Part shown: piece after piece, positions 408-34,279 of the stretch
Numbering within the stretch: position 1 is the first letter of the stretch
Layout: every line of letters begins with the position of its first letter
Assembly (NCBI GenBank): GCA_964187785.1
Contig: OZ076409.1
Span: forward strand, 72,046,001 to 72,110,000
DNA: 64,000 nucleotides
Origin: Amphiscolops sp. MND2022
Lineage: Eukaryota
Reading direction: 5' to 3'
Notes under the pieces: generated by a model
The model's input: the letters and a program-made list of their open reading frames with translations, nothing else
What the model was told of the DNA's origin: nothing
Databases searched by the model: none
Made by a program: the position numbers and the translations under genes

Positions 408-451
408 GATAGCCTTTCAAGTTGACCTGGTGTCAACTTGGAAGGGCTATC
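408..451 (+). other. Internal bulged hairpin H1 (GATAGCC...CAAGTTG...CAACTTG...GGCTATC); representative of A, AL and BS copies
   Basis: 19-bp stem with one G-T pair, a single bulged base on the 3' arm and a 5-nt loop; conserved between otherwise dissimilar families. Confidence 0.8.
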
Positions 452-792
452 CTTCTAAAATCGTTAATCAACAGTGTTTTTGGGTAGGTATATGTTGCAT
501 TAGTACCAATTAGAGCTTCATCAACAGTTTGCCAACGGCAAAAACGATGTCGTGATAATTCCGTTATAAAAATATTAGTTAACAAATTGTTTTCAAAGTT
601 GATTTTTTCCATTAAAAATGTGTCCTAATGCCACCAAATTGAATAAAATAATAAATGGTATTGACTAAAACTAAATAACAATGAAAAAGAAGATCAACAT
701 TTTTATTAGGTCTCATTATGGAAGCAGAAACCTCACGTTTTAACTTAATTAACGTCAACGCCACATACTTTACATCAACGCCCACCGTCTGT

Positions 793-812
793 GGGCATGC
801 CGAGGCATGCCC
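793..812. promoter_or_regulatory. Conserved 20-bp palindrome GGGCATGCCGAGGCATGCCC (p53-family response-element-like); representative of 24 copies
   Basis: Present once per unit about 45-60 bp before CTAG; matches RRRCWWGYYY x2 with no spacer at 19 of 20 positions. Confidence 0.55.
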
Positions 813-869
813 TTCGACGACGTATACCAAACAACCTCCATATCTACACCCACCCGCGGTAGCAGCTAG

Positions 870-2861
870 GTGCGGGGGGGAAACCCCATCCCTTATCTTG
901 GAGGATTCGGGTAGGGTCCTGAATCCGAGTTCAGTGCCGCCAGCTCTCAGTAGAAATCTGGGCATTTTTTTGCGATCTCGTGATCTAACCATAGGATTTT
1001 AAAGTTGGAGCGGCCCCCACCAGATTTTCCAAAGTTATTCGCCCCCCACCGGGTTCCAGCGTGATTGAAATATTTTGACGGGGTACACGGGCGACCGTTA
1101 GGGGTCATTTTGGGGGTAAAATTTATAAAAGTTCGCATAACTTTTTTCCTGTTGGTTTAAAACTTTAGGACCCTGCTAAAAGTTTCTTGACCATGTTGCA
1201 GGGGCCCCGGAGGTCCAAACCAAATTTTTCTATCTTGAAGCTATCTCCAAGTACCCCCCCGCCCAAACCGTTATTTTTCCGGAAACGCCGGTTTTTGACC
1301 CGGAAGGAGTTGTCTGAGCGCGGGGTCGTTAGGTGATGTTTTGGGGACGGCTTTGAGACGAAGCGGGGGATATATAGTTTGCCGACCCCAGTTCACCCCC
1401 CGCACGGGAAATGACCGTTATATGAGCGGGAAAAATGCCCCCCTCCACGTTTTACCGCTATTTCCGGTGTGAAGGAGTGGGAGTAGCGCGTCGGGTGTTA
1501 TATAACAAAAGTAGGTTTAGACAAGGACCTATCGGAAACATGTAGTTTGGGACCCCCTGGTCCAACCTGTTAGCGGGAAATGGGGCTTCCGCCTCCTTTT
1601 TTTACTGCTAAAACCGTAAAATGGGCATTGAGGGGTAAATATCTCGTGAACGCGTGGAGCAATCGTGTCCATCACTACTACAAGGTTTCATACCCATGAT
1701 ATGGTGCCTTCAGGGGGGCAAACAGATTTCCGCTATCTATCACCGTTACCGACTTGGCCCCCCAGCCTAACCGCTATGTGACCGGAAATGTCACTTTTTG
1801 AGCCCAAAGGGTCGGTCCCAGCCGGGGAACGTTAGGTAACTTATTGTAGTACTCAATGAGACGAGTTGGGGCATATAGTTTCAGTCACCCCCCGTTACCC
1901 CTTGGGACCGGAAATGACCGTTATGTGGGTAAAATTGCCATTTTTGTCCTATTTGGAGGGCATTTAGATGCGGAAGGAGTGGTAATAGGTGCTTGGACAC
2001 TATATGATGTAAAAGAGGACGTGATGCGAGCATTCGAAATTAACCGTTATGTTGACCCCTAAGTCCCCCTGGTACCGTAAATGACCGGAAATGGTCTAAT
2101 TTTGTGTTTATTGGGTACAAATGTTTGGTATTTTATGAATTAAAGTACATGGAAGGTGTTTCAAAGGCCTCCAGAAGTGAACATCGTCATGAAACCTTGT
2201 GGGGGGTAACGGTATATAACACCGGAAGTCCAAACCGTTGGTCACAGAATAGGTTTTTTGGTTTCAAAATGTCTTTAGGCGTAGTTTTATGGGTTGAATC
2301 GTCATAAAATCAACTATTACGAACATTTTTCGGAAAAAAATTTTTTTCACATTAGTTTCAGAGACCTCCAATGCTTCAGTCAACATAACCGTTACATTTT
2401 GATAGCCTTTCAAGTTGGCCTGGCGTCAACTTGGAAGGGCTATCCTTCTAAAATCGTTAATCAAGAGTGTTTTTGGGTAGGTATATGTTGCATTAGTACC
2501 AATTAGAGCTTCATCAACAGTTTGCCAACGGCAAAAACGATGTCGTGATAATTCCGTTAAAAGAATATTAATTAACAAATTGTTTCCAAAGTTGATTTTT
2601 TCCATTCGAAGTGTGTCCTAATGCCACCAAATTGAATAAAATAATAAATGGTATTGACTAAAACTAAATAACATTGAAAAAGAAGCTCAACATTTTTAAT
2701 AGGTCTCATTATGGAAGCTGAAACCTCACGTTTTAACTTAATTAACGTCAACGCCACATACTTTACATCAACGCCCACCGTCTGTGGGCATGCCGAGGCA
2801 TGCCCTTCGACGACGTATACCAATTACATATATATCTACACCCACCCGCGGTAGCAGCTAG
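870..2861 (+). mobile_element. Unit 2, family A, 1992 bp non-coding module
   Basis: Bounded by GCTAGGTG junctions; left hairpin 903-926, H1 2401-2444, palindrome 2786-2805. Confidence 0.75.
903..926 (+). other. Left-end hairpin with TAGGGT loop; representative
   Basis: GGATTCGGG-TAGGGT-CCTGAATCC; equivalent hairpins with different stems follow each junction. Confidence 0.8.
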
Positions 2862-3679
2862 GTGGGCGGGGGTAATTCCCCAACTAAAAAATCGGCCGGC
2901 GGGTAGGGTCCTGCCGGCCGTCCAAAATCAAAAATATACTAGTAGAAAACGGCCGGTCAAACGAGCTATTTTTTTATTTAACCGTTAGAATTTGGGTTTA
3001 GATTGCATGCGGCCATGAAATGGCCATACGAATCGAAGTTCCTGCTGACGTTTTGCGATTGAAACACTTTATAAAAAGTTATGGCCAATTTGTCAGTCAC
3101 CTAGAAGGGCAAAATGAGGAAAATTTTAACAAAGTCGCTGATAACTCAAAATGTGTTATTTTTTGGACTTTGACTGTGAAACAAGCTTGGAACCTTCATT
3201 TCGTGGCTGTGGCATTGCACTGAACGCAAAAGATGTAAAGTTTTTACATTTTTTGAAAATTTGACATTTTTGAAATTTTTTTCACTACTATCAGTACCAT
3301 ATATGTCAAAAACACCTCAGAAAAAAATTTTTATTTGCTTTAACTTGGAAACCTTGGTATCCATGGTTTCTGTCGGAACCTACTCGCAACCAAACAACCA
3401 ACAGTTTGCATCCAATGTGAAAATAAAAAATTTTTCTGGGTCATAAGCGTTTCACAAGGATTTCTCAACTTAGTATTAATTTACAAAATGGTCATTTTGA
3501 ACACAATATTTTCATCGAGGCTTGTCGGCTATAGCCTTAATGTTCTAGAACGGTCCCACTGGCAACGTAGGAACCATTTATAGTAATAGAAAGTTTAAAA
3601 AATATATTTTCACCCTGTCTTCAGTCATTTTTCAGTCATTCGGAACTTAACTTAGAAAAATTTCGACCAAAATACCCAA

Positions 3680-5000
3680 TTTTTGACAGATCGAAAATTC
3701 AAATTCAACTTTTTAAGCAAAATTATTAACTCTGACGTAACCAGTGGGGCTCATGATACTCAAAAACACGATTGGGACTGGTACCAATGGCTCCAATATC
3801 ATATGAGCCGCGATAAGACGTTATTTTGAGCAATACGTCTCAATTGAGGGAAACATCTCGCAAGCCTGGGATCACAGTTAAAAGTGATTTCGTCAAAAAT
3901 TTACTCTTTTTCGTCAATCACTATGTACACAGAGTGCTTAGGGTGAGTTTCAGCACTATTATGCGGTTTTTGAAGGAATCGGTCTGCTCAAGGGGTGGTA
4001 TGAGACATTTTTTTTGCATGTAGTACTATATTTCTCAAAACTTTTAGCCCATTATCTCGAAAAGCTCACTTCGCAAATTACTTTCAGTTACTCTATTCGA
4101 AGCTTAGAATATATATGAACACTGTGGTTGATCAGAAACTCTTGACTATTTTGTTTTTGGAAAAAAACTGCCTTGCATGTGTTACATTAGTGGCAGGAAA
4201 AATACCAGTAGCTCCAAAAATCACAATTTTGGACGGACAGACCTGCAATGATGCAAAGCAAAAACGTTTCAACAACTTCTGGCGCCACTTTTTTTACCCA
4301 AGAGGTTCGAAATTACTATTAACAATGCTGACATTCGCTATAAATAAGATCGAGGTCAATTTACTAACACTTAGGTTATACATTTATATCTGAGAAACCA
4401 TTCTTTGTCAGGTCGCAATTTTAAATTTAGTTTGGGAAGCAATACTTTTCACTCTGAAGCAAACCGTTGGGCCCAAATTACTCAAAAACTACAAAAAGAC
4501 TGTCACCATATGCCCTAATAGCATATGAGATTCGACCGTATGTTTTTAACACAAAAACTCTCATCCGAAGTAAACATGTTGAAGGCCTTGAATCACCGTG
4601 AGAAATGATTTCATCAAAAAATATTCCTTTTTCGTCAATCTTTATTTACACAGAACACGTTGTGTCATTTTCAGCCGTGAAATGAGCTTCTACCGTAATA
4701 TGGGTTGCTCAAGGTGTTGTATAAGACAAAAACTTCCTCTTTTCTACTATCTTCTTCAAATATTTCAACCCTTTGTCACAAGAAGTTAATATTCAAAATC
4801 TCTTTGAAATGTTTCTTTAGGTTGGGGTGAAGTGTTAGAACAATAATTATGATCGAAGAATGATAGTATTGGTGTTTGGACCATGTCCGGATGAACAAAT
4901 TGCAAAATCATGAAAAATTTCTTACCATTTTTGGTCATTTTGTCAGTACTAAAAATGTTAGCTGAAAAAGAATTTTTTGATGGCACCATTGGATTCCTCT
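3680..5000 (+). repeat. Old diverged ~720-bp direct duplication inside BL units (bounds approximate)
   Basis: CTCTGACGTAACCAGTGGGGCTCATGATACTCAAAAAC near 3730 parallels CTCTGAAGCAAACCGTTGGGCCCAAATTACTCAAAAAC near 4452; TGCTCAAGG and other blocks also recur. Confidence 0.7.
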
Positions 5001-5095
5001 CAAAAAGTTAGCTATATGAACTGTGTAATAACCCCGTATCTTTTCAATTTAAATAATTTTAAAAAGCAAACTTTTTTGACTAAAATCCTAAAAAT

Positions 5096-6430
5096 CATAC
5101 CATTTCCTAAAAAATTTCAAATGCCCCCCATTTGACGTATAAGAATAGCACAGAAAACTATCACATACCGATCGACTCTACTTCCATTGTAGATTACCAG
5201 AATTTTGTTTAGAACAATTTTTGACGGATGCAAAAAAAAATTTAAACCCTCCAAAAAAGGGCCAAAATTACACGAAAAAATTGACCTTAAAATTTTAAAA
5301 TGTCGAAAAATCATCAAAACCACAGCTTCTTGGGGTTCTATCAACTCCACGTGGTCCACAGAGTATGTTAAAACAAGTTTTACCCGTATTTGTGCAATAT
5401 GTGAAAAAGCCGACTTTTTTGGGAATGAGAAACATACCATTTCCTAAAAAATTTCAAACGCACCCCATTTGACGTATAAGAATAGCACAGAAAACTATCA
5501 CATACCGATCGACTCTACTTCCATTGTAGGTTACCAGAATCTTGTTTAGAACAATTGTTGACGGATGCAAAAAAAAATTAAACCCTCCAAAAATGGGCCA
5601 AAATTACACGAAAAAATTGACCTTAAATTTTTAAAATGTCAAAAAATCATCAAAACCACAGCTTCTTGGGGTTCTATCAACTCCACGTGGTCCACAGAGT
5701 TTGCTAAAACAGGTTTTACCTGTTTCTGAGCTATATGTGAAAAAACCGACATTTTGGGGAAGAAAAACATACCATTTCCTAAAAAATTTCAAATGCACGC
5801 CATTTGCCGTATGAGAATAGCACAGAAAACTATCACATACCGATCAACTCTACTTCTATTGTAGATTATCAGATTTTTGTTTAGAACAAATTTTTATGGA
5901 TATAAAAAATTTTTAAACCCTCCAAAAATGAGCCAAAATAACACGAAAAAATGGACCCTAAATTTTTAAAATGTCAAAAAATTATCCAAACCACAGCTTC
6001 TTGGGGTTCTATCAGCTCCACGTGGTCCACAGAGTATGCTAAAACAGGTTTTGCCCGTTTTTGAGCAGTATATGAAAAAGCCGACATTTTTGGGGAAGAA
6101 AAACATACCATTTCCTAAATAATTTCAAATGCAGGCAATTTGCCGTATGAGAGTAGCACAGAAAACTATCACACACCGATCAACTCTACTTCTTTTGTAG
6201 ATTATCAGAATTATGTTTAGAGTAAAGTTTTATGGATATGAAAAATTTTTATACCCTCCAAAAATGGGCCAAAATGACACAAAAAAATTGACCTCAAATT
6301 TTTAAAATGTCAAAAAATTATCCAAACCACAGCGTCTTGGCGTTCTATCAACTCCAAATGACCTTCAGAGTATACCAAACCAGGTATTGCCAATCTTTTG
6401 AGCAATATTTAAAAACACCGACTATTTGGC
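5096..6430 (+). repeat. About 4 tandem copies of a ~336-bp repeat in unit 3 (end approximate)
   Basis: CATACCATTTCCTAA at 5096, 5433, 5768, 6104. Confidence 0.9.
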
Positions 6431-6657
6431 AAGAACACCATAATATGTTCCATATAAGAAGTGAATCATTCCACATATATACCCGGTCTAATATTTCCAA
6501 ATTAGCGATAACATTTATACATGATGGTTTTTGAAAGTGAGCTTCATAAGAGGTTGAGATGTAATAATACGTAAATGGACCCTAAGTTTCATTGAAATCT
6601 CAATGGAATACGTCCAATCAACTTCAATCCTAACTATTATATAACAAAAAACACTTG

Positions 6658-6698
6658 AGTACATTCCATCTCCCCATCGGGGGAGATGAGAATGTACT
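6658..6698 (+). other. Internal bulged hairpin H2 (AGTACATTCCATCTCCCC-ATCG-GGGGAGATGAGAATGTACT); representative of BL and D copies
   Basis: 9 bp + bulged A on the 3' arm + 9 bp + 4-nt loop; nearly invariant in diverged BL subtypes and in unit 15. Confidence 0.8.
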
Positions 6699-7623
6699 TT
6701 TCAAAAGCCAAAAACTTCGAATTTTAAATCTTTTGTAACATTGTATGTAACTGTTGAAACGATGAACGAATAAAAATGCTTCTAGTACCTTCATCAATTT
6801 TTGCTTCAGCTCCTATTTCTGCAGAACAAAACCAAAAGACACACTTACAGCAGTTAAGTTCGATTGTATAACTCAGTGAATAAAGGTATGACTGAGGAAG
6901 TTCACAAGTTGTTTCAAAAGTTTCCGGCCTTCCAAAATCATGAAACGTCCACACAACCAAGATAGCAAGTGAAAGAATGCTGAATGCACCTTATTAGATG
7001 AGATAAATAATGTGTGGAACTTGCCATTATCTCAAGATGACGTTGATTTATGATCTTTTAAGGATAGTTCGATATGTGACCACAATAGTGGAAAACCTAT
7101 TACTATTTGAAGAACACCGTGGAAAGCGTTCAGAAAGGACAGTATATTTGTTTCGAGCATGCATGCGTGTGTTCCTTTGGTGACGTTAGCTTAGTGTACA
7201 TGACGGAGGTATTCGAGAGAATATGATAGAGTTTACTCACAAGTCTTTGTTTTGTTAAACTTTCTATGCCGTTGAGTACATTCGTAAGGTACATCCATCC
7301 CCTTCTCTGGGAATGTACGTTTGCCAAATGACTGTCATCCAAAATTCGTAATCCGGACGAGTTTAACTACATAAACATGTGATGAGCGTTTTCAATTCAC
7401 AACCGAATAACATTTTTTTCTCGAAAATGATGATGGTTTTGATTTTGATGTCTTCTACTTTTATCATCATGCAAACGACCTTACCATGTCTCTCTTCTGT
7501 CGTCATTTGTACAACGCCACATACCGTTCCGACGCCCACCGTCTGTGGGCATGCCGAGGCATGCCCTTCGACGACGTATGCCAAATGAGCCATACCCGCA
7601 CTCTGGAGTGCGGTAGCGGCTAG

Positions 7624-9617
7624 GTGGGCGGTAGGTTTCCCGTAGTCAAAAAAAATTGCAGGCCGGGGTAGGGGCCCTGGCCGAGGCAAAATACCATAGA
7701 AAAGGTACCAAATTATGTGAGTTTAGAAAATTGAGCCATACAAATTCTCTGAAAATTGCTGTGTGTACCCTATCGCCCAATCTAAGAACTTTTTCCTGCT
7801 GACGTTTTGCTCTCCAAATGTTACTAATATGACTTTTTGAAAAATTTATCTCTGGTTTTTCATCAAAAATAGTGATTTTGGCAATTTTTGTGAAATATCT
7901 CTGATTGCATTAATTTTTGGACGTTGACTGTGAAACAAGGTCGGAACCATCATTTCGTGACCATGGCAATGCACTAAACACAAAAGATGTAGAGTTTTTA
8001 AATTTTTTGAAAATTTGACATTTTTGAATTTTTTTCACTACTATCAGTACCATATATGTCAAAATAACCTCAGAAAATTTTTTTTTATTTTATTTAATTT
8101 AGAATCCTTGCTATCCATGGTTTCTGTTAGTATCTACTCGCTGCCAGAGACTCAACAGTTAGCATCGAATCTGAAATTAAAAATTTTTTCGAGGTCATAG
8201 GTGTTTCACAAGGATTTCACAACATAGTCTTGTTTTACAAATAGGTCATTTACAACATCATATTTTCATCGAGGCATGTCGGATATAGTCTTATTGCTCA
8301 CGAACGGTCCTACTGGCAACGTAATAACCATTTATAGAAATATAAAGTTTTTAAAAAATCTTTTCACCCGTTCTTCAGACATTTTTCAGACATTCGGAAC
8401 TTAACTTAGAAAAATTTCGTCTCTAAAACCCATTTTTCGTCAGGTCGAAATTTGAAATTCAGCTTTTGAAGCACAAATATGCACTCTGACGTAACCAGTA
8501 GGGCCAATGATACTCAACAACACCATTGAGACTGGTATCAGTCGCTCCAAAAACATATGAGCCGTGATAAGACGTTTTTTTCAACAATACTGTTCAATTG
8601 ATGTAAACATTGCGGAAGCCTTGGATTACAGTGAAAGTTGATTTGAACAAAAATTTACTCTTTTTTGTCAATCACTATGTAGACAGAATGCGTAGGGTAA
8701 GTTTCAGCACTAATATGAAGATTTTGAAGGAATCGGGTTGCTCAAGGCGTGGTATGAGACACTTTTTTCTCATATACTAGTGTTTTTCAAAACCTTTTCG
8801 TTAAATATCTCGAAAAGCAAACATTAAAAAATACTTTCTGATATCTAATTTAATTCCTAGAATATAAATGAATCATGTGGTTGATCAGAAACTCTCTACT
8901 TTAATGTTTCCAGAAAAAAATCCCTTCCCATGTTTTATATCTGTAGCAGTAAAAAAAGTAGACGCTAAAAAATACGCTATTTTGCTAAGATTGAATTGCA
9001 ATTGTTTAGCTTTAAAACTCTTTTAATACTTCTAACGCCACCTTAAGGACTCAAGATGATTGAAAATGTCAATCACAATGCTGACATGTAGTCTTTCTAC
9101 GATCCTGGCTGGACAGATTTTGATTATTTTTCAAGTACCTGTTAACTGAATCTCGTGATAGCCTTCTAAGTTGACCTTCTGCGTCAACTTGAGAAGGCTA
9201 TCACTAAAATAAACTAAATTCTGATTTGTTTGTTTGTTCCTAACGTCTTTTGGTACGATCGTCTTACGGTTAGTTGGTTAAACCAGGTCGCTTATACTTC
9301 CACAATTTTCGACCACCGTCCGTGTATTCGGTTCACACGACTTTACATTTTCAGTCGTTTGTTTTCGATAACTTTCACAATGTACTGCCATTAGCGCAAA
9401 ATTCATACTAGTACTTGGTTGGTTGAAATACTTAAACAACTGTTTCCATAGTTATTCGCGGTGATGGTACAATCCGCGCGCCTACATACATACGGCGTCT
9501 TGTCACTACAACGCCACATAGGGAAACAACGCCCATAGTCCGTAGGCATGCCGAGGCATGCCTTTCGACGACGCGCGCCAAATCTATGCGCGCCCGCACT
9601 TGTGCGGTAGCTGCTAG
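7624..9617 (+). mobile_element. Unit 4, family BS (divergent), 1994 bp
   Basis: Bounded by GCTAGGTG; body homologous to the left part of BL; H1 at 9155-9204. Confidence 0.72.
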
Positions 9618-12415
9618 GTGGCGGGGGGCTGTCCCCAATAGAATATAGTGAGGTAGGGTAGGGTTCCCTACCGAACATTCAGTACTGAAAGACTCTTGTA
9701 GTATGAAAATTTTTCGATGTTTTGAGACCGATTTCGGATTCCACCCGTCAGAAGTTTATGATTTTTTGGCCCCCACCCAGATTTTGGGCACTGATCGCCC
9801 CCCACCAGGTTCCATACCCGTGGTTTCGTTGTGACGGGTACACGAGCGACCGTTAGGGGTCAATCAGGGGGTAAAATTTATAAAAGTGTGAATAACTTTT
9901 CCCCCCGTCGTTTTAGCAGGTCCGGTCACTAGTAAAGGTTTGTTGGGCATCATGCAGTGGGTACGGGGGGCCAAACAAAAATTTTCTATCATGCACCGTT
10001 ACGGACTTGGCCCCCCGCCCAAACCGCTATTTTACCGGAAATTGCACTTTTTGAACGGGAAGGAGTCGTCTGAGCGCGGAGTCGTTTGGTAATGTTTTGT
10101 AGAGCATCTGAAGACGTGGTGGGGGACATGTAGTTTGCCGACCCCAGTTTACCCCTCGGACGGGAAATGACCGTTATGTTAGTTTTAAAATTGCCCCCCG
10201 TCAACTTTAACCGCTATTTCTGGTGTGAAGGAGTCGGAACAGCGTGTCGGGTGCTATATATCAAAAGTAGCTTTAAACAAGGACCTATCAGAAACATGTG
10301 GTTTGGGACCCTTTGAACGGACCCGTTAGCCGGAAATAGGGTGACCGCCTCCTTTTTTTGGTGTTAAAACCGTAAAACGGGCATTAAAGTGAAATTATCT
10401 CGTGAACGCGTGGAGCAATCGTGTCCATCACTCCTACAAGGTTTCATACCCATGACATGGTGTCTTCAGGGGGGCAAACAGATCAGCGCTATCTATCACC
10501 GTTACGGACTTTGCCCCCCAGCCTAACCGCTATATTACCGGAAACTGCCCTTTTTGACCGGGAAGGAGTCGTCTGAGAGTGGAGTCGTTAAGTAATGTTT
10601 TGTAGAGCATCTAGAGACGTGTTGGGGGACATGTAGTTTGCCGACCCCTGTTTACCCCTCGGACGGGAAATGACCGTTATGTTAGTTTTAAAATTGCCCC
10701 CCGTCAACTTTAACCGCTATTTCTGGTGTGAAGGAGTCGGAATAGCGTGTCGGGTGCTACATATCAAAAGTAGCTTTAAACAAGGACCTATCAGAAACAT
10801 GTGGTTTGGGACCCTTGGAACGGACCCGTTAGCCGGAAATAGGGTGACCGCCCCCTTTTTCTGCGGTTAAAATTGTAAAACGGGCATTGAAGTGGAATTA
10901 TCTTGGAAACGCGTGGAGCTATAGTGTCCTTCACTACTACAAGGTTTCATACTCAAGATACGGTGCCTTCAGGGGGGAAAACAGATTACCGCTATATATC
11001 ACCGTTACGGACTTGGCCCCCCAGCCTAACCGCTATGTTACCGGAAATGTCATTTTTTGAGCCAAAAGGGTTAGTCCCAGCGTGGGAACGTCAGGTAACT
11101 TTATGTAGAACTCAATGAGACGAGTTGGAGGATATGGTTTCAGTCACCCCCCGTTGACCCGTTAGACCGGAAACGACCGTTATGTAGTGAAAAATGTAAT
11201 TTTTATACTTTTTGAAGGCCATTTAGGGCAGGAAGTATCGGTAATATGTCTTTGGACAGTATACAATGAAAGTTTTGGTGTGAAACAAGCAATCTGAAAT
11301 ATCCGTTATTATGATTCGGAAGTCACACTAACAGCGAAAATGACCGTTATGTAGTGAAAATTTTTTTCACATTTTTTTTGCTTTCGATAGGTCCTTCAAG
11401 CCAAGAAGTAGCTGTATTAGGTCTTTGGCCACTTTATGATGATTGTGGTGTTGTGAGATGACCGTACGAACTTGACCTTTATAATGCCCCTGAGTTGCTG
11501 CGGCACGAGAAATTTCAGAAAGTTTGTCTTTTCTGTGTTTTGTTGGAATAAACATTTAATTTCATTAAACCAATGTGCATTCAGGGTGTTTAGAAAGCTT
11601 CAAGAAAAGAATTTAATAGGAAACATGGCGGTGAGAAATAACAAATTGCCACGTAAATCCAACCCCCGTTGGGGAATAAATGTAATAAATTGTTTTGGAA
11701 GTGCCAATCGACGTGTATTTGCGGATCATAGCCACGGTATTGTCTATTCGTGTTTCTTTTTGAAGACTTTGAACATTTTCACTTTATCAGCTTGAGGTTT
11801 TAACTCTATATGCTTAATAACCGTTACAATATGATAGCCCTCAAGTTGACCTTGTGTCAACTTGAAAGGGCTATCCTTTCACAACTGCGCAGCAACAGTG
11901 TGATTGAGTGATTTAGTTATTATCCAAGGCCAATTTGAACTTCAACAAGATTTTAACCACAATATTTAAAACTATTCATATGATTCTTTCAAAAGGGTAA
12001 ATATTTAACTAATATTTGACAAAAAAACTCCAACCTTTAATTTGTGGACCGAATAGTAGGAAAACCATGTTTCTTAACGTTGTTGGATGAAATTCAAAAT
12101 GATGCTTTTAAAAGAATAACAATTCTTGACACTATATATTTTTTCTATTTTCCAATAAACTATTTTTCCAAAAGTCTATTTTTCCAATAAACATTGTTGA
12201 TTGATGCCCATTCATAGTGACTGGAAAGTTTTACCAACTGTGGTGTTTTTTTTTAATCAGAGGTGAAACCGCTCCCTACCGTCGCATAATGTAATTCAAG
12301 CCGACGCCCACATGCCAACATCAACGCCCACCGTCCGTAGGCATGCCGAGGCATGCCTTTCGACAACGTATGCCAAATCACGCCCCTGCGAGGTCACTAA
12401 AGCGGTAGCGGCTAG
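9618..12415 (+). mobile_element. Unit 5, family AL, 2798 bp
   Basis: Bounded by GCTAGGTG; A-related body with 503-bp internal repeats; H1 at 11833-11875; sister of unit 18. Confidence 0.72.
9995..11350 (+). repeat. 503-bp internal repeat, about 2.7 copies, in unit 5 (end approximate)
   Basis: ACCGTTACGGACTT at 9995, 10498, 11001. Confidence 0.85.
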
Positions 12416-14409
12416 GTGCGGGGGGGTAACCCCAACAAATATATTGGAGGATTCGGGTAGGGTCCTGAATCCGATTTTAACTCTAATAGCTATCGATAGG
12501 AAATCTTGCAAAAATTTCGGGATCTCGTGATCTAACCATAGGATTTTAAAGTTGGAGCGGCCCCCACCAGATTTTCCAAAGTTATTCGCCCCCCACCGGG
12601 TTCCATACCCCGGAAAATTTTTTTCTGGCCACACGGGCGACCGTTAGGGGGTCATTTTAGGGGTAAAATTCATATTGGGCCACATAACTTTTTTTCTGTT
12701 GATTTAAAACTTTGGAACCCTGCTAAAAGTTTCTTGACCGTGTTGCAGGGGCCCCGAAGGTCCAAACCAAATTTTTCTATCTTGAAGCTATCTCCAAGTA
12801 CCCCCCCGCTCAAACCGTTATTTTTCCGGAAACGCAGGTTTTTGACCCGGAAGGAGTCGTCTGAGCGCGGGGTCGTTAGGTGATGTATTGGGGACGGCCT
12901 TGAGACGAAGTGGGGGACAAGTAGTTTGCCAACCTCAATTTACCCCCCGGACGGGAAATGACCGTTACATGAGCGTGAAAAATGCCCCCCTCCACGTTTT
13001 ACCGCTATTTCCGGTGTGAAGGAGTGGGAGTAGCGCGTCGGGTGTTATATAACAAAAGTAGGTTTAGACAAGGACCTATCGAAAACATGTAGTTTGGGAC
13101 CCCCTGGACCAACCCGTTAGCGAGAAATGGGGCTTCCGCCTCCTTTTTTTACTGCTAAAACCGTAAAATGGGCATTGAGGGGTAAATATCTCGTGAACGC
13201 GTGGAGCAATCGTGTCCATCACTACTACAAGGTTTCATACCCATGATATGGTGCCTTCAGGGGGGCAAACAGATTTCCGCTATCTATCACCGTTACCGAC
13301 TTGGCCCCCCAGCCTAACCGCTATGTGACCGGAAATGTCACTTTTTGAGCCCAAAGGGTCGGTCCCAGACGGGGAACGTTAGGTAACTTATTGTAGTACT
13401 CAATGAGACGAGTTGGGGGATATAGTTTCAGTCACCCCCCGTTACCCCTTGGGACCGGAAATGACCGTTATGTGGGTAAATTTGCAATTTTTATACTTTT
13501 TCAAGTGTATTTAGGTGCGGAAGGAGTGGTAATAGGTGCTTGGACACTATATGAGGTAAGGGAGGACGTGAGGCGAGCATTCGGAAATAACCGTTATGTT
13601 GACCCTAAAGTCCCCCTGGTACCGTAAACGACCGGAAATGGTCAAATTTTGTGTTTTTAGGGTACAAATGATTAGAATTTTATAGAAAAAAGTACCTGGT
13701 CGGTGTTTCAACGGCTTGCAGTAGTGAACATAGTCATGAAACCTTGTGGGGGGTAACGGTATATAGCACCGGAAGTCCAAACCGTTGGAGACAGGATAGG
13801 TATTTTGGTTTTAAAATGCCTATAAGCGTACTTTTGTGGGTTGAATCGTTTCAATATCGACTAATTTGGATATTTTTTTGACATTGAAGGTTTTTTCAAT
13901 AGTTTCAGGGACCTCAAATGCTTCAATCAATATAACCGTTACCTTATGATAGCCTTTCAAGTTGGCCTGGTGTCAACTTGGAAGGGCTATCCTTCGAAAA
14001 TCGTAATTCAAGTGTGTTTTTGAGTACGTTTTTATTACTTTAATATCAATTAGAGCTCAATCATTAGTTTGCCAACGACAAAAACTATGACGTGATGATA
14101 CCGTTAGTAGAAGAATAGTTAACAATTTGTTGACAAAATTGATTTTTTGCATTTTAAATGTTTCCTAAATGCCAGGAAAACAATTTATCTAATGAATGGT
14201 ACTGATTGAACCCAAGTATCATTTGAAAAAAAGTTAAACATTGTTTTTTCGTTTCATTATGGAAGCTGAAACCTCACGTTTTAGGTCACTTAACGTCAAC
14301 GCCACATACTTTACATCAACGTCCGCCGTCTGTGGGCATGCCGAGGCATGCCCTTCGACGACGTATACCAATTACATATATATCTACACCCACCCGCGGT
14401 AGCAGCTAG
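12416..14409 (+). mobile_element. Unit 6, family A, 1994 bp
   Basis: Bounded by GCTAGGTG; homologous to unit 2. Confidence 0.75.
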
Positions 14410-16380
14410 GTGCGGGGGGGTAACCCCAACAAAAATTTTGGAGGATTCGGGTAGGGTCCTGAATCCGATTTCAACTCTAATAGCTATCGATAGGAAATCT
14501 TGCAAAAATTTCGGGATCTCGTGATCTAACCATAGGATTTTAAAGTTGGAGCGGCCCCCACCAGATTTTCCGAAAATTAGCGCCCCCCACCGGGTTCCAT
14601 ACCCCGGAAAATTTTTTTCTGGCCACACGGGCGACCGTTAGGGGGTCATTTTAGGGGTAAAATTCATATTGGGCCACATAACTTTTTTTCTGTTGATTTA
14701 AAACTTTGGAACCCTGCTAAAAGTTTCTTGACCGTGTTGCAAGGGCTCCGGAGGTCCAAACCAAATTTTTCTATCTTGAAGCTATCTCCAAGTACCCCCC
14801 CGCTCAAACCGTTATTTTTCCGGAAACGCAGGTTTTTGACCCGGAAGGAGTCGTCTGAGCGCGGGGTCGTTAGGTGATGTTTTGGGGACGGCCTTGAGAC
14901 GAAGTGGGGGACATGTAGTTTGCCAACCTCAGTTTACCCCCCGGACGAGAAATGACCGTTATATGAGCGGGAAAATTGCCCCCCTCCACGTTTAACCGCT
15001 ATTTCCGGTGTGAAGGAGTGGGAGTAGCGCGTCGGGTGCCATATATCAAAAGTAGGTTTAGACAAGGATCTATCGGAAACATGTGGTTTGGGACCCCCTG
15101 GACCAACCCGTTAGCAGGAAATGGGGCTTCCGTCCCGTTTTTTTACGGTTAAAAACGGAAAATGGGCATTGAGGGGTAAATATCTCGTGAACGCGTGGAG
15201 CTACGGTGTCCTTCACTACTACAAGGTTTCATACCCATGATATGGTGCCTTCAGGGGGGCAAACAGATTTCCGCTATCTATCACCGTTACGGACTTGGCC
15301 CCCCAGCCTAACCGCTAAGTGACCGGAAATGTCACTTTTTGAGCCCAAAGGGTCGGTCCCAGCCAGGGAACGTTAGGTAACTTATTGTAGTACTCATTGA
15401 GATGAGTTGGGGGACATAGTTTCAGTCACCCCCCGTTACCCCTTAAGACCGGAAATGACCGTTATGTGAGTAAATTTGCCGTTTTTGTCCTATTTGAAGG
15501 GCATTTAGATGCGGAAGGAGTGGTAATAGGTGCTTGGACACTATATGAGGTAAGGGAGGATATGAGGCGAGCATTCGGAAATAACCGTTATGTTGACCCC
15601 AAAGTCCCCCTGGTACCGTAAACGACCCGAAATGGTCAAATTTTGTGTCTATTGGGTACAAATGTTTGGTATTTTGTAGATAAAATTATCTATTAGGTGT
15701 TTCGACGGTCTGCAGTAGTGAACATAGTCATGAAACCTTGTGGGGGGTAACGGTATATAGCACCGGAAGTCCAAACCGTTGGAGACAGGATAGGTTTTTT
15801 GGTTTTAAAATGTCTTTCGGCGTACTTTTGTCGACTATTAAGGACTACTTTTAAAAATTAAAGTTTTTCCATATAGTTTTAGAGACTCCGAAACCTCAAC
15901 CAACATAACCGTTACCTCATGATAGCCTTTCAAGTTGGCCTGGTGTCAACTTGGAAGGGCTATCCTTCAAAAATCGTCAATCAAGTGTGTTTTTTGGTAT
16001 GTTTGTATCATTTTAGAATCAAATAGAGCTTCAAGAAAAGTTTGCCAACGACAAAAACTATGTCGTGATGATTCCGTTATTAGAATAATAGTTAGCAAAT
16101 TGTTGAGAAAATTGATTTTTTCCATATCAAATGTGTCCTAATTGCCAGGAATCCTATTTAACTAACAAATGGTATTGATTGGAATGTATGTAACAGAGTT
16201 ATGAAAGTTCAAATTGATTATTACGTTTCATTATGGAAGCTGAAACGTAATATTTTAGTTTAATTAACGTCAACGCCACACACTTTACATCAACGCCCAC
16301 CGTCTGTGGGCATGCCGAGGCATGCCCTTCGACGACGTATGGCAAATCCCTTCTAACGACGCCCGTACATCCCGGGCTAG
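14410..16380 (+). mobile_element. Unit 7, family A, 1971 bp
   Basis: Bounded by GCTAGGTG; homologous to unit 2. Confidence 0.75.
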
Positions 16381-18345
16381 GTGCGGGGGGGAAACCCCAT
16401 CCCTTTTCTTGGAGGATTCGGGTAGGGTCCTGAATCCGAGTTCAGTGCCGCCAGCTCTCAGTAGAAATCTGGGCATTTTTTTGCGATCTCGTGATCTAAC
16501 CATAGGATTTTAAAGTTGGAGCGGCCCCCACCAGATTTTCCAAAGTTATTCGCCCCCCACCGGGTTCCAGCGTGATTGAAATATTTTGTCGGGGTACACG
16601 GGCGACCGTTAGGGGTCATTTTGGGGGTAAAATTTATATCCGGTCGCATAACTTTTTTCCTGTTGGTTTAAAACTTTGGGACCCTGCTAAAAGTTTCTTG
16701 ACCTTGTTGCAGTGGCTCCGGAGGTCCAAACCAAATTTTTCTATCTTCAAGCTATCTCCAAGTACCCCCCCGCCCAAACCGTTATTTTTCCGGAAACGCA
16801 GGTTTTTGACCCGGAAGGAGTCGTCTGAGCGCGGGGTCGTTAGGTGATGTATTGGGGACGGCCTTGAGACGAAGCGGGGGACATGTAGTTTGCCGACCCC
16901 AGTTTACCCCCCGGACGGGAAATGACCGTTATTTGAGCGGGAAAAATGCCCCCCTCCACGTTTTACCGCTATTTCCGGTGTGAAGGAGTGGGAGTAGCGC
17001 GTCGGGTGCCATATATCAAAAGTAGGTTTAGACAAGGACCAACCGGAAACATGTGGTTTGGGACCCCCTGACCCAACCCGTTAGCCGTTATAAGAGTGAT
17101 CGCCTCCTTTTTTTACACTCAAAACCGGAAAACGGGTATTGAGGGGTAAATATCTCGTGAACGCGTGGAGCAATCGTGTCCATCACTACTACAAGGTTTC
17201 ATACCCATGATATGGTGCCTTCAGGGGGGCAAACAGATTACCGCTATCTATCACCGTTACGGACTTGGCCCCCCAGCCCAACCGCTATGTGACCGGAAAT
17301 GTCACTTTTTGAGCCCAAAGGGTCGGTCCCAGCCTGGGAACGTTAGGTAACTTATTGTAGTACTCATTGATACGAGTTGGGGGATATAGTTTCAGTCACC
17401 CCCCGTTACCCCTTAGGACCGGAAATGACCGTTATGTGAGTGAAATTGCAATTTTTATACTTTTTGAAAGGCATTTAGGTGCAGAAGGAGTGGTAATAGG
17501 TGCTTGGACACTATATAATGATAAGGAGGACGTGAGGCGAGCATTCGAAAAAAACCGTTATGTTGACCCCAAAGTCCCCCTGGTACCGTAAATGACCGGA
17601 AATGGTCAAATTTTGTGTTTAAAGGGTACAAATGTTTGGTGTTTTATGGATAACAGTACCTATTAGGTGTTTCGACGGTATACAGTTGTGAACATAGTCA
17701 TGAAACCTTGTGGGGGGTAACGGTATATAGCACCGGAAGTCCAAAACGTTGGAGACAGGATAAGTTTTTTGGTTTTAAAACGTCTTTCGGCCTACTTTTG
17801 TCGACTATTATGGTCTATTTTTGAAAAATAAAATTTTTCCATATAGTTTCAGAGACTCCGAAACCTCAACCAACATAACCGTTACCTTATGATAGCCTTT
17901 CAAGTTGGCCTGGTGTCAACTTGGAAGGGCTATCCTTCAAAAATCATTAATCAAGTGTGTTTTTGAGTATGTTTGTATTACTTTAGAATCAATTAGAGCT
18001 TCAAGAAAAGTTTGCCAACGACAAAAACTATGTCGTGATGATTCCGTTATTGTTAACAAAGTTTTAAAAACGTTGATTTTTTTCATTTCAAATGTGTCCT
18101 AAATGCCAGAAAACCTCTTTACCAAACAAATGGTATTGATTGAATTGTATATAACAGCTAATAAAAGTTCAAACTGAATATTACGTTTCATTTTGTAAGC
18201 TGAAACGTCATTTTATAGTTTCATTAACGTCAACGCCACATACTTTACATCAACGCCCACCGTCCGTAGGCATGCCGAGGCATGCCTTTCGACGACGTAT
18301 ACCAAATTCCTTTAACACAACACCCCCGAGCGCGTTAGCAGCTAG
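16381..18345 (+). mobile_element. Unit 8, family A, 1965 bp
   Basis: Bounded by GCTAGGTG; homologous to unit 2. Confidence 0.75.
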
Positions 18346-20320
18346 GTGCGGGGGGGTAACCCCAACAAAATTTTTGGAGGATTCGGGTAGGGTCCTGAAT
18401 CCGAGTTCAGTGCTGCCAGCTTTCGTTAAGAAAATTTGGATAGGATTCGGGATCTCGTGATCTAACCATAGGATTTTAAAGTTGGAGCGGCCCCCACCAG
18501 ATTTTCCGAAAATTAGCGCCCCCCACCGGGTTCCATACCCCGGAAAATTTTTTTCTGGCCACACGGGCGACCGTTAGGGGGTCATTTTAGGGGTAAAATT
18601 CATATTGGGCCACATAACTTTTTTTCTGTTGATTTAAAACTTTGGGACCCTGCTAAAAGTTTCTTGACCGTGTTGCAGGGGCCCCGGAGGTCCAAACCAA
18701 ATTTTTCTAGCTTGAAGCTATCTCCAAGTACCCCCCCGCCCAAAACGTTATTTTTCCGGAAACGCAGGTTTTTGACCCGGAAGGAGTCGTCTGAGCGCGG
18801 GGTCGTTAGGTGATGTTTTGGGGACGGCCTTGAGACGAAGTGGGGGACATGTAGTTTGCCGACCCCAGTTTACCCCCCGGACGGGAAATGACCGTTATAT
18901 GAGCGGGAAAAATGCCCCCTTCCACGTTTTACCCCTATTTCCGGTGTGAAGGAGTGGGAGTAGCGCGTCGGGTGCCATATATCAAAAGTAGGTTCAGACA
19001 AGGACCTATCGGAAACATGTAGTTTGGGACCCCCTGGACCAACCCGTTAGCGAGAAATGGGGCTTCCGGCCCGTTTTTTTACGGTTAAAAACGGAAAATG
19101 TGCATTGAGGGGTAAATATCTCGTGAACGCGTGGAGCTACGGTGTCCATCACTACTACAAAGTTTCATACCCATGATATGGTGCCTTCAGGGGGGCAAAC
19201 AGATTTCCGCTATCTATCACCGTTACGGACTTGGCCCCCCAGCCTAACCGCTATGTGACCGGAAATGTCACTTTTTGAGCCCAAAGGGTCGGTCTCAGCC
19301 AGGGAACGTTAGGTAACTTATTGTAGTACTCATTGAGACGAGTTGGGGGATACAGTTTCAGTCACCCCCCGTTACCCCTTGGGACCGGAAATGACCGTTA
19401 TGTGGGTAAATTTGCTTTTTTTGTACTTTTTGGAGGGCATTTAGGTGCGGAAGGAGTGGTAATAGGTGCTTGGACACTATATGATGATAGGGAGGACGTG
19501 AGGCGAGCTTTCGGAATTAACCGTTATGCTGACCCTAAAGTCCCCCTGGTACCGGAAGTGACCCGTAATGGTCAAATTTTGTGTTTAAAGGGTACAAATG
19601 TTTGGTGTTTTTTGGATAACAGTACCTATTAGGTGTTTCGACGGTCTGCAGTCGTGAACATAGTCATGAAACCTTGTGGGGGGTAACGGTATATAGCACC
19701 GGAAGTCCAAACCGTTGGAGACAGGATAAGTTTTTTGGTTTTAAAATGTCTTTCGGCCTACTTTTGTTGACTATTATGGACTATTTTTGAAAAATAAATT
19801 TTTTCCAAATAGTTTCAGAGACTCCGAAACCTCAACCAACATAACCGTTACCTTATGATAGCCTTTCAAGTTGGCCTGGTGTCAACTTGGAAGGGCTATC
19901 CTTCAAAAATCATTAATCAAGTGTGTTTTTGAGTATGTTTGTATTACTTTAGAATCAATTAGAGCTTCAGGAAAAGTTTGCCAACGATAAAAACTATGTC
20001 GTGATGATTCCGTTATTAGAATAATAGTTAACAAAAAATTGATAAAGTTGATTTTTTAAACTTTAAATGTGTTCTAAATGCCAGAAAACCTCTTTACCAA
20101 ACAAATGGAATTGATTGAATTGTATATAACAGCTAATAAAACTTCAAATTGAATATTAGGTTTCATTATGGAAGCTGAAATGTCATATTATAGTTTCAAT
20201 AATGTCAACGCCACATACTTTACATCAACGCCCACCGTCTGTGGGCATGCCGAGGCATGCCCTTCGACGACGTATACCAAATTCCTCCAACACAACACCC
20301 CCGAGCGCGGTAGCAGCTAG
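18346..20320 (+). mobile_element. Unit 9, family A, 1975 bp
   Basis: Bounded by GCTAGGTG; homologous to unit 2. Confidence 0.75.
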
Positions 20321-33003: not shown

Positions 33004-34279
33004 GTGGTCGTTAGCATGGGATTTTCTTTATGAGCGTAGTCCACTTTTTTTAGGCCGGGGTAGGGTCCCGGGCCGTTACCAATTTCTTACGGAGGAAAAA
33101 TGTGAAAATCTGCGAGTTTAAAAAATTGGCCCGTACGATTTGGCTGAAAATTGGCATACAGCATCGTCTTGGGAAACAAATGACTTTGTCCTAGTGTCAT
33201 TTTGCCCAGAAAATTCAAAAAGTTGGTCAAATTGAAAATTTTTTGTCCGTCCAAGGCAAAAATTTGACTTTTTCGCTTTTTTTGGCCAATTTTCTCAGAA
33301 TTGGTTGATTTTGGTGCAGTGAGTCATAAGAGGTTATAAGGTCTGCAAGTAGCCATCAATCGGCTTGCAAAATCAGATTTTGTCAAAAGTGTTTAGTTTT
33401 TTCAAAAATTCACACTTTTTTTTTATTTCAATGTTTTTTGATACACTTTATTGAATTTTTTCTAAGTTTCACTAAATTTTTTTAAAAATGTTTTAAAACA
33501 CTTTTTTTGCACGTTTTTGATGTTTTTCGCTCTCCCATACAGGTTTTCGCATACGGGGAAACTGAATCTGGCAACGAAATAACTTTATTCTGCAGTTCAA
33601 CTTTCGCCATTTTTAATTGTTGAAAAATCACTTATTTTCAACCTAACGAGTGAAAATATCAGATTTTAAAAACATAAAGTTGAGTTTAAGGAGACTTACA
33701 GGTGGAAACAAATGCTCAGAAACAAATAGATTTCTTGTATTAGCCAAAGAAAGCCTTTAAAATTCTTTTTACTTTCTTTAAATCAAAATTCAACTATTTT
33801 TAGGAAATTTGGCAGTGAAAAAAATTTATAATTTTTAAATAAAAAACTTGCTTTGTTGGTCATTTGCGTTTGTCATTATTATCTGTGTAATTCACCAACA
33901 CGTTTCAAGTATTTTGACCCAATTTGAAAATTTTTGATACTGCATAATCTATCCGAGAGAACGAAACAGTTGTGTACATTCCATCTCCCTCCTGGGGGAG
34001 ATGAGAATGTACTTGCCAAAGTCCAGGTACTACAGACCATATTTGTTTTTATGCGACGCCGTCTATACTAGTGCACATGAATACAAATTGTTTGTCTGAA
34101 TTTTACTTCTGACTTGACGTATGCTGTACGTTTGGTACTGACAATACCCATCATATACATAACAAGCGTCAACGCCACATACCCTTACCAACGCCCATAG
34201 TCCGTAGGCATGCCGAGGCATGCCTTTCGACGACGCGCGCCAAACACAAGCGCGCCCGCACTTTTGCGGTAGCGGCTAG
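33004..34279 (+). mobile_element. Unit 15, family D (single copy in window), 1276 bp
   Basis: Bounded by GCTAGGTG; unique AT-rich body but left hairpin 33053-33074, H2 33974-34012 and the standard right end are present. Confidence 0.7.

Follow-up and report, generated by a model that had tools for sequence, protein, structure and literature searches.

The locus raises the question of what an internal hairpin does for a mobile unit when each unit of a tandem array carries one intact copy. The window (the whole stretch analyzed, 64,000 nt of Amphiscolops sp. MND2022, GCA_964187785.1, contig OZ076409.1, positions 72,046,001 to 72,110,000, forward strand) is divided by 23 CTAG^GTG junctions into 22 complete and two cut units, and none of its ORFs exceeds 159 aa. 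An earlier description made from the letters alone (the sequence-only reading) had proposed two hairpins, H1 and H2, as an obligatory signal read by its structure. The features are as follows:

408..451, +: H1, internal hairpin of the first (cut) A unit
793..812, +: J, subterminal palindrome that every window unit has about 60 bp ahead of its right end
866..872, +: junction CTAG^GTG, cut between 869 and 870; right end, left end and target site at once
870..2861, +: A-type non-autonomous element, 1992 bp, with its own H1 at 2401-2444
903..926, +: left-end hairpin of the A unit; stem family-specific, core GGGKAGGG..CC shared
12416-14409, 14410-16380, 16381-18345, 18346-20320, 31033-33003, +: further A units
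2862..7623, +: BL-type non-autonomous element, 4762 bp
5091..6442, +: tandem repeat inside BL, period 336 bp, 4 copies
6658..6698, +: H2, intact internal hairpin of BL; other copies at 28081, 44833, 49586, 54349, 63082
7274..7318, +: second H2 in BL, decayed, at the same position as the H2 of 1.28-kb units
24293-29054, 41036-45799, 45800-50559, 50560-55308, 59286 to window end, +: further BL units
7624..9617, +: BS-type element variant, 1994 bp, with H1 at 9157-9202 (7-nt loop)
20321-22309, 22310-24292, 29055-31032, 34280-36260, 36261-38244, 55309-57292, 57293-59285, +: further BS units
9618..12415, +: AL-type element, 2798 bp, H1 with 2-nt bulge at 11833-11875
38245-41035, +: second AL unit
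33004..34279, +: 1.28-kb element, probably the D unit of the sequence-only reading, with H2 at 33973-34013

Folding agreed with the two structures first drawn: H1 at 408-451 has 10 bp (including one G·T pair), a single bulge on the 3' arm, 9 bp and a 5-nt loop, and H2 at 6658-6698 has 9 bp, a bulge, 9 bp and a 4-nt loop. Folding was stable in 6/6 folds (z-scores of -5.5 to -9.0; 0/200 shuffles equal). As had been claimed, exactly one intact hairpin was found in each window unit (24/24; H1 in 17, H2 in 7), lying 250 to 930 bp inside the element, and in both 2-kb families H1 ends 391 to 420 bp from the right end. The statement that no unit has both hairpins stands for intact copies and falls for decayed ones, a second, decayed H2 being present in 14/14 BL copies. 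The description of the hairpins as isostructural with a single bulge did not survive, with a 2-nt bulge in the AL units (11833, 40457) and a slippery bulge register in H1; that H1 and H2 are unrelated in sequence is unproven, as their 5' arms align at a borderline p = 0.048 against shuffles. BS and BL do have a common left part (1473 bp, 87.5% identity). A and BS are homologous over the right-hand 470 bp and share length and H1 position, with no detectable homology in the middle 1.2 kb. J is missing from a J-less subgroup outside the window, and the left-end hairpin at 903-926 is likely the transposase-binding origin.

The units are non-autonomous Helitron-like elements of the form 5'-GTG…CTRG-3', all starting with GTG and ending in CTAG or CTGG behind a short variable hairpin (judged by eye), and both ends are held in common with autonomous copies. 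Insertion is into CTDG^DT without target-site duplication, the latter from one solo copy in a repeat compared with 360 empty sites. In non-element DNA, CTDG ends 10 of 11 left flanks. The base after CTAG is A or T in 30/30 flanks (the set examined for the not-G pattern), with T at +2 in 28/30, and 20 further right ends are followed by GT and then a non-G base; a boundary at CTAGG^TG is ruled out by these edge flanks. Right ends were followed by GTG in 1419 cases versus 35 + 20 others (a count that leaves out ends followed by G and a base other than T), and another element directly adjoins ∼96% of counted right ends. Each right end recreates the target CTDG^DT, and different families therefore pile up head-to-tail, in mixed arrays that cover ∼6 Mb. 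Array junctions are indistinguishable from circle junctions. Near-identical copies have different neighbors on both sides in 155/162 pairs, which rules out concatemers or segmental duplication as the way the arrays grew, and neighbors are rarely alike (≥99% in 3/392), so that unequal crossing-over cannot be the main engine; each unit was inserted independently at junctions.

A helper with a HUH Rep is present in the genome. Intact helper elements (12 to 27 kb) lie in the same arrays and carry a HUH Rep–Pif1–GIY-YIG gene and an RPA-like gene. The RepHel proteins, of 2.1 to 2.6 thousand aa, have Pfam domains Helitron_like_N, PIF1 and a weak GIY-YIG (PF14214 and PF05970 above cut-off) and the motifs HYH/HIH and YxxxY; there are 115 matches, many with open frames over 2100 aa. 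The GIY-YIG RepHel family comprises 355 clusters at E < 1e-30, and no RepHel relative was present among 55 IMG/VR pattern matches. The product of the second gene has an RPA/OB-like fold (pLDDT 85; best Foldseek E 5.6e-6), which rules it out as a capsid. The proposal of two hairpin classes served by two helpers is not supported: there are at least five types, short units also carrying H3, H4 and H5, and intact H1 or H2 copies belonging to the helper itself are absent from all 29 distinct helpers. The left 1.5 kb of AL is 92% identical to a 20-kb helper, helpers from each of the two deep branches of the Rep tree have contributed left ends to H2 units, and the left end of the 2180-aa helper leads both BS (H1) and BL (H2) units. 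All H1 units with an assignable left end match the 2180/2207-aa branch, and a partial link between hairpin type and helper branch thus remains for H1. Helpers mostly have long hairpins of their own (23 in 471 kb versus 1 in 215 kb shuffled), seen in 20/29 units, with six added by a weaker search and three without a clear hairpin. Many of these lie 11 to 103 nt downstream of a stop codon, and in two helper groups the hairpin is upstream of the RPA-like gene. The bare mini-hairpin motif showed no strand enrichment in helpers (104 versus 113). Two helper lineages that have the left part of an H2 unit break within the loop of H2 or immediately ahead of it, and no chimeric lineage has an intact H2 upstream of the gene. 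The 1.28-kb units retain the conserved 450-770 block of the helpers and a splice-donor-like motif ∼190 nt before H2.

Among short units genome-wide, exactly one of H1, H2 or H3 was found in 399/406 and other hairpins in four more. A near-obligatory, structure-read cis signal, as had been suggested, is therefore upheld, with a single intact long internal hairpin in 403/406 units and pairing preserved via wobble and some compensatory changes. Hairpin type also tracks size class, with one fixed type within each main narrow class, and a single type spans elements of 1.28 to 4.76 kb. Within 12 narrow size bins (CV under 1%; drawn post hoc, after data inspection, two of them holding one unit each) fall 398/406 short units, and lengths across the 38 subfamilies of the 1.28-kb class have an SD of 13 bp versus 18.5 expected (permutation P = 0.0012, kinship ignored). 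A nucleosome-multiple ladder of unit sizes was rejected (best period 182.7 bp, P = 0.25). Across the 38 subfamilies, whose median identity is 62%, no conserved block is longer than H2.

Extrahelical bases in single-stranded DNA hairpins are required at the recombining ends of attC and IS608, and the sequence-only reading had taken the bulge as a recognition determinant on that analogy. This is unsupported because bulgeless copies are numerous and recent (22/109 classified H1 and 19/272 H2 units) and make up whole classes, and the bulge is thus neither conserved nor obligatory. The majority form is a 3'-arm bulge, which in H2 follows 7 to 8 pairs in 49/60 distinct sequences; 12 H1 units have a bulge on each arm. 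G·T pairs on the plus versus minus strand number 38:0 (H1) and 30:6 (H2), and covarying pairs 3/17 (H1), 2/17 (H2) and 5/14 (H3), the pair counts of H2 being lowered by ∼5 misplaced bulgeless rows in its alignment; searches were made with nhmmer profiles. The arm sequences are conserved, and sequence is therefore read as well as shape. GCGNAGC is kept in 17/17 H3 units (N being A, C or G). H4, H5 and several helper hairpins also have GNA loops; H1 and H2 have none and are likened to H3 by their position and by mutual exclusion. Two-arm patterns for H1 and H2 had 0 matches in IMG/VR, and 7/7 16-mer matches lacked a hairpin; one outside contig has H2, J and a similar junction.

Most likely, the hairpin is a second-strand priming site. 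We give a probability of roughly 0.5 to the full reading, in which Helitron-like units insert precisely at CTDG^DT, almost always at the end of another element, and H1 and H2 are two of several interchangeable hairpins that likely fold on the displaced strand and would mark where second-strand synthesis is primed. Both the strand bias of the G·T pairs and the repeated occurrence of GNA mini-loops suggest that the displaced single strand is where the signal is read. By analogy with Helraiser and IS91, RepHel would nick at CTDG^G, displacing the plus strand, and would cut after CTRG, the ends being joined to a circle whose junction would again resemble the target. The circle would be coated by the RPA-like protein, and the ∼40-nt hairpin may stay uncoated and be read by its shape by a general factor, such as host primase or its loader, much as single-strand origins are read on rolling-circle plasmids and in phage G4. 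Shape-reading by a general factor would make one copy enough, leave sequence free to differ between lineages and render a match to the helper unnecessary; the decay of the second H2 in every BL copy examined (14/14) also speaks for the priming reading. According to PMC13037366, GCGNAGC forms a DNA mini-hairpin of unusual stability, the related GCGAAAGC is much weaker as RNA, and a related mini-hairpin lies at the priming site of phage G4; the account of Helraiser in PMC5876387 gives its circles in cells as double-stranded. Against priming, H1 and H2 lack a GNA loop, covariation is thin, narrow size classes are left unexplained, helpers without a clear hairpin exist and the mini-hairpin motif is not strand-enriched.

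The G·T bias is equally compatible with RNA, the G·U-compatible changes lying on the sense strand, and helper hairpins soon after stop codons are as expected of an RNA signal. Hairpins acting in 3'-end processing or termination of transcripts from a left-end promoter, and so stopping read-through of the array, are somewhat unlikely. Retention by the 1.28-kb units of the 450-770 block (putatively a promoter) and splice-donor-like motif would fit, as would the breaks at H2 in H2-derived helper lineages, of which none keeps an intact H2 upstream of its gene, and the survival of the upstream H2 copy in BL. But a non-autonomous DNA element is under selection on its DNA, the hairpin precedes the RPA-like gene in two helper groups and Rfam yielded 0 matches at gathering scores. 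Stems of 18 to 21 bp and short loops do not reach the length of a canonical pre-miRNA, and H1 and H2 as small RNAs against helpers were rejected on longest common words of 11 to 13 nt, one fused H2 excepted. GCGNAGC loops are, in addition, DNA-favored according to PMC13037366. Quite unlikely is a bulge-dependent site of two specificities, with a separate helper transposase or GIY-YIG nuclease for each: the majority bulge form, the single helper branch of assignable H1 left ends and the chimeric breaks at H2 speak for it, and against it stand the frequent bulgeless copies and classes, the at least five types, the helpers without H1 or H2, the origin of H2 units from both deep branches and the ends of one helper in both BS and BL.

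The narrow size bins, with a single type per main class, speak for packaging, in which short circles would be satellites that borrow ssDNA-virus capsids and have their lengths fixed thereby. We regard this as doubtful. In its favor are the reduced length variance of the 1.28-kb class, the equal length and H1 position of A and BS despite their unrelated middle 1.2 kb, and endogenous circovirus-like copies with a period of 2183 to 2189 bp, one H2 class averaging 2188 bp, although this 2.19-kb agreement may be due to chance (∼1 in 10 by rough count). However, the elements encode no capsid, the endogenous virus loci lack H1 to H3, the nonanucleotide stem-loop that is clear in those viruses is not conserved in any units, the IMG/VR searches returned neither two-arm matches nor hairpins, and one type covers 1.28 to 4.76 kb, with comparable hairpins in 12- to 27-kb helpers. 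Parvovirus NS1 had no match in the genome, nor did the control. The composite in which short elements are hyperparasites, using a self-targeting IS91-like Helitron clade for replication and integration and H1/H2/H3 for packaging in borrowed ssDNA-virus capsids, is similarly doubtful. It is most improbable that the hairpins are passengers of common descent or of conversion between arms in arrays that grow like satellite DNA. The homologous right-hand 470 bp of A and BS and the descent of the 1.28-kb families from one ancestor would agree with this, but H2 stands out as the longest conserved block, of two copies one is preserved and the redundant one decays, and neighbors are rarely alike.

Second-strand priming remains our preferred reading. 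Our literature searches turned up no account of such ends, target or arrays. The elements represent a eukaryotic rolling-circle transposon with an IS91-like short target that inserts at its own junctions, and by self-targeting, mixed arrays of several megabases can form directly, with no need for unequal crossing-over. Natural variants of the conserved, swappable internal hairpin make the question of second-strand synthesis on Helitron circles testable, and a site-preferring single-strand transposase may be a useful tool. If packaging were true, Helitron circles would be carried between cells or hosts.

Among known systems, attC and IS608 have imperfect single-strand hairpins, strand bias and mobile arrays in common with these units, but their hairpins are at the recombining ends, whereas H1 and H2 lie well inside and can dispense with the bulge. 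The target of IS91 is CTTG/GTTC, resembling its ter end. As far as PMC5714925, PMC10288648 and PMC5876387 describe it, IS91 shares Y2 HUH rolling-circle transposition and orientation-specific insertion beside a tetranucleotide without duplication, but is bacterial and small, with no helicase and no megabase mixed arrays, whereas the proteins here are far larger and include Pif1. Helraiser and HLE1, as portrayed in PMC11417382 and PMC5876387, likewise have a Y2 HUH Rep fused to Pif1, a separate RPA-like gene, a 3' end of CTRR type preceded by a short hairpin, no duplication and non-autonomous partners sharing ends; HLE1 differs in its 5' TC and A^T target (here GTG and CTDG^DT), and the C-terminal GIY-YIG, mostly element-abutting right ends, internal hairpin and fixed short-unit sizes set the present elements apart. 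A profile of the Rep region had no match to Helraiser at E up to 10, and the helicase match was weak. HLE2/Helitron2/Helentron elements resemble ours, on the accounts in PMC11417382 and PMC5148889, in an extra nuclease domain on RepHel, OTU in some copies, hairpins at both ends and internal tandem repeats in non-autonomous copies, with GIY-YIG capture reported for one moss HLE2 family; their target is T^T, whereas the array elements use CTDG^DT and GTG/CTRG ends, and neither DUF6570 nor an AP-endonuclease was present in 2/2 own RepHel proteins or 18/18 relatives scanned. Among the listed element ends, no asymmetric terminal inverted repeats were noticed. Telomere-targeted Paramecium Helitrons, as described in PMC13085455, form a third clade of RepHel and likewise choose their targets and insert in one orientation, but into ciliate telomeric repeats rather than, as here in an animal, into their own junctions. 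Single-strand origins (pT181 sso, G4 hairpin I, RSF1010 ssiA) belong to bacteria and phages, whereas the role here is inferred and H1 and H2 have no mini-loop; as presented in PMC5714925 and PMC13037366, they offer the likeness of a hairpin on an SSB-coated circle, with mini-hairpin loops, whose reader is a priming enzyme rather than Rep.

The window is a non-coding chain of units in one orientation, in which 23 CTAG^GTG junctions (^ marks the cut or insertion point) delimit 24 units, 22 of them complete and 2 cut, with lengths of 1276, 1965-1994, 2791-2798 and 4749-4764 bp. The claim that every unit holds exactly one of two internal bulged hairpins was borne out, as one intact copy is present in every one of these 24 (17 H1, e.g., 408-451; 7 H2, e.g., 6658-6698), and the geometry described for both quoted copies was correct. 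All six folds had z-scores of -5.5 to -9.0 and were equalled by 0 of 200 shuffles. The single bulge is not constant within the window, since AL units show a 2-nt bulge. The first BL unit holds an additional, degenerate copy:

7274-7318, decayed second H2 in the first BL unit, besides its intact copy

Across all 14 BL copies the home-position H2 has decayed, in several ways, and the upstream copy is intact; one hairpin is thus enough. A and AL units (e.g., 870-2861) contain YAACKG motifs, which we take to be Myb-like sites, at a density of ~6 per kb, against 1-3 per kb in the other classes.

Genome-wide, 399 of 406 units shorter than 5.6 kb carry exactly one of H1, H2 or a further hairpin, H3. 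Three carry two, probably as fused pairs in which a junction went unnoticed, and four lack H1-H3 and have other long hairpins, H4 and H5, so that the sequence-only reading was wrong in recognizing two classes only. Its proposed check of hairpin type against size class gave one type per main class.

Hairpin type by size class of unit
1.05 kb class: H3, 17/18 units
1.28 kb class: H2, 234/234 units
1.39 kb class: H1, 35/35 units
2.0 kb class: H1, 67/67 units
2.18 kb class: H2, 10/10 units
2.38 kb class: H2, 9/9 units
2.79 kb class: H1, 6/6 units
4.76 kb class: H2, 14/14 units
3.1 kb bin: mixed, three H4 units and one H1 unit

Nor is the bulge obligatory, being absent from 22/109 H1 and 19/272 H2 units (one further H1 unit was unclassified). 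Wobble pairs, plus versus minus strand, numbered 38:0 in H1 (26 distinct sequences) and 30:6 in H2 (60 distinct), and pairs changed on both sides numbered 3/17, 2/17 and 5/14 in H1, H2 and H3. In alignments of 22/25 H1, 26/66 H2 and 11/11 H3 variants, covariation scores were matched by 4, 0 and 0 of 500 shuffles, respectively, a control that ignores kinship. The hairpins are real and selected, and belong to a larger and stranger system than was first seen. A marine metagenome contig, 71-86% alike to the units, carries H2, the shared subterminal palindrome J (~60 bp before the right end in the units) and a CGAG^GTG junction, which makes it probable that the system reaches beyond this assembly; its H2-J layout (L174:813-900) is that of the units, and its junction suggests that target specificity may differ in another lineage.

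The host genome spans 1.07 Gb, and the array containing the window (C1:72,046,001-72,110,000) runs from near 70.455 Mb to near 76.487 Mb on C1 (OZ076409.1; ~0.7 Mb of the array sequence was inspected), with further, smaller arrays elsewhere. Past the terminal CTAG the flank is variable: at 30 of the 35 ends examined that are not followed by G, the next base is A (24) or T (6), followed by T in 28 of those 30, and 20 more right ends have GT and then a base other than G. Upstream extension of 20 edge loci reached the left end in flanking DNA at 9 (one truncated and dropped), and left flanks end in CTAG, CTGG or CTTG in 10/11 cases (8 extended edges plus 3 further ones). A solo 1978-bp copy splits a tRNA-like repeat precisely at CTAG^AT, and 360 empty copies of that repeat (≤2 mismatches) are present. 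Taken together, these flanks and empty sites establish an element with ends GTG…CTRG that inserts at CTDG^DT without duplication. The tRNA-like repeat, often in ~257-bp tandems, has received insertions more than once (L111, L131-L133).

One common right end is followed by GTG in 1419 copies, against 55 counted otherwise (flanks of G and then a non-T base lie outside this count). In a catalogue of 423 units, near-identical pairs (≥98.5%) had both neighbors different in 155 of the 162 cases for which all neighbors were known, and shared both neighbors in none; 52 further pairs with an unknown neighbor were left out. Identity of ≥99% was reached by only 3/392 adjacent pairs, and units therefore insert singly at junctions. 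The short target occurs too often to account for this preference by itself, so that end structures or an end-bound protein likely contribute to target choice there. A J-less subgroup (L054, L042, L057 and others; 1.03-1.07 kb, some 1.28 kb, and 2377-aa helpers, the helpers being long autonomous units named by protein length) uses the same arrays and junctions; J is therefore dispensable for some elements. Inverted arrangements (L002-L003, C1:23.977-23.982 Mb; L093; L037-L039) comprise an inverted unit pair, a junction at which the sequence folds back, and a pair of 2254-aa helpers that point toward each other. LTR-retrotransposon-like gag/pol frames lie within or beside arrays (L029, L014), one of them downstream of a 2136-aa helper.

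The helpers lie in the same arrays and encode a protein of 2.1-2.6 thousand aa that matches Helitron_like_N, PIF1 and, at its C terminus, GIY-YIG (the last below its cut-off in both own proteins scanned); a Rep query found 115 genomic matches, many within long open frames. Most helpers examined have a second gene downstream (20 matching frames) with a predicted RPA-like fold (pLDDT 84.6; Foldseek E 5.6e-6, TM-scores low). A left end of up to ~770 bp and short right ends are common to helpers and short units at 83-99% identity, which identifies the short units, on sequence grounds, as non-autonomous partners of the helpers. No unit among the 29 distinct ones >9 kb carries its own intact H1-H3; one holds a decayed H1-like copy, another terminates with a fused fragment of a 2.38-kb unit, and two retain just the 5′ arm of H2. 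By strict criteria, 20/29 have a different long hairpin (23 hairpins over 471 kb, the fused H2 included; block-shuffled sequence of 12 units gave 1 over 215 kb), and relaxed criteria bring in 6 of the remaining 9. One helper hairpin is kept with compensatory changes, judged by eye, across three helper groups. The idea that two helpers serve two hairpin classes is not supported: H2 units take left ends from both deep Rep-tree branches, and BS (H1) and BL (H2) alike begin with the left end of the 2180-aa helper. In helpers C1_2367 (L230/L055), C7_2370 (L226/L043) and C1_2369 (L229/L059) the left ~970 bp derive from a unit of the H2 type, with the switch point within the H2 loop or immediately ahead of it; doubled or exchanged left ends occur in several helpers. 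Additional 219-275-aa ORFs without a Pfam match (L004:7359-8027, L022:1173-1829, L041:602-1426) are, by eye, presumably SGNH-hydrolase-like, and some helpers have an N-terminal OTU-like domain.

The elements are almost certainly rolling-circle and Helitron-like. Plus-strand cleavage and double-stranded circles are described for Helraiser in PMC5876387; by analogy with it and with IS91 (PMC5714925), the left junction would be nicked, the plus strand displaced and cut after CTRG to form a circle, a second strand made on that circle, and the product inserted at CTDG^DT.

The loops bear on the form in which the hairpins act. GCGNAGC is kept in 17/17 H3 units, with N as A (7), C (8) or G (2), and GNA loops with a closing base pair also turn up in H4, H5 and helper hairpins. 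PMC13037366 describes GNA alone as forming an extra-stable DNA mini-hairpin of the GCGNAGC type, reports the RNA counterpart of the related GCGAAAGC to be far weaker, and places a motif of this kind at the priming site of G4. This favors single-stranded DNA as the acting form of H3 and, by equivalence of position, of H1 and H2, although the GNA motif is absent from H1 and H2 and the bare motif has no strand bias in helpers (104 versus 113). We put the probability of a single-stranded DNA signal at about 0.65, and give priming or loading as its job even odds overall. Action in RNA, which we consider unlikely, would be compatible with the G·U pairs and with the many helper hairpins that come after a stop codon.

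A slighter chance still attaches to a capsid packaging signal, which the fixed unit sizes keep in play. As many as 398/406 short units fall into 12 bins with a CV of <1% (bins drawn after the fact); 38 subfamilies of the 1.28-kb class, with a median identity of 62%, have a length SD of 13 bp versus 18.5 for independent segments (P = 0.0012); and A and BS have unrelated middles and equal length. Against packaging, the circovirus-like endogenous copies of this genome (2.18-2.19 kb period, 2183-2189 bp) lack H1-H3. A nucleosome ladder for unit sizes was unsupported (P = 0.25). The circovirus-like tandem copies have Rep, Circo_capsid and a nonanucleotide stem-loop (L213-L216; C13:56.294-56.299 Mb, C6:3.571-3.575 Mb), two of the copies on C6 being identical over 1554 bp. 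At C8:35.178-35.197 Mb (L210-L212), ~20 units of ~870 bp lie in tandem, each bearing part of a CRESS Rep plus an origin stem-loop, and resemble an array of defective circles; L217 is a related single copy.

In its mode of action the system resembles a Helitron, and it belongs to the rolling-circle order. HLE1 (canonical Helitrons, such as Helraiser) has a TC start and an A^T target, neither of which is seen here, and HLE2 (Helitron2/Helentron) is marked by a T^T target, DUF6570 and an AP-endonuclease; these elements have another target, and neither domain appears in the two own proteins and 18 relatives scanned. The Rep profile hit 355 clusters at E<1e-30 and gave no match to Helraiser; of the 18 long relatives scanned, 16 have GIY-YIG. 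Earlier papers report Helitrons in tandem or inserted into each other and one moss HLE2 family that captured GIY-YIG, and the accessible parts of this literature do not describe the present system (PMC11417382, PMC13085455, PMC12001565, PMC5876387, PMC10288648, PMC4683698, PMC5148889, PMC5714925, PMC13037366, 10.64898/2026.09.17.752431); the HELIANO extra clusters, HelenSM92 and Repbase may hold relatives. It appears to be a new form within a known order, with ends and a target that differ from those of HLE1 and HLE2.
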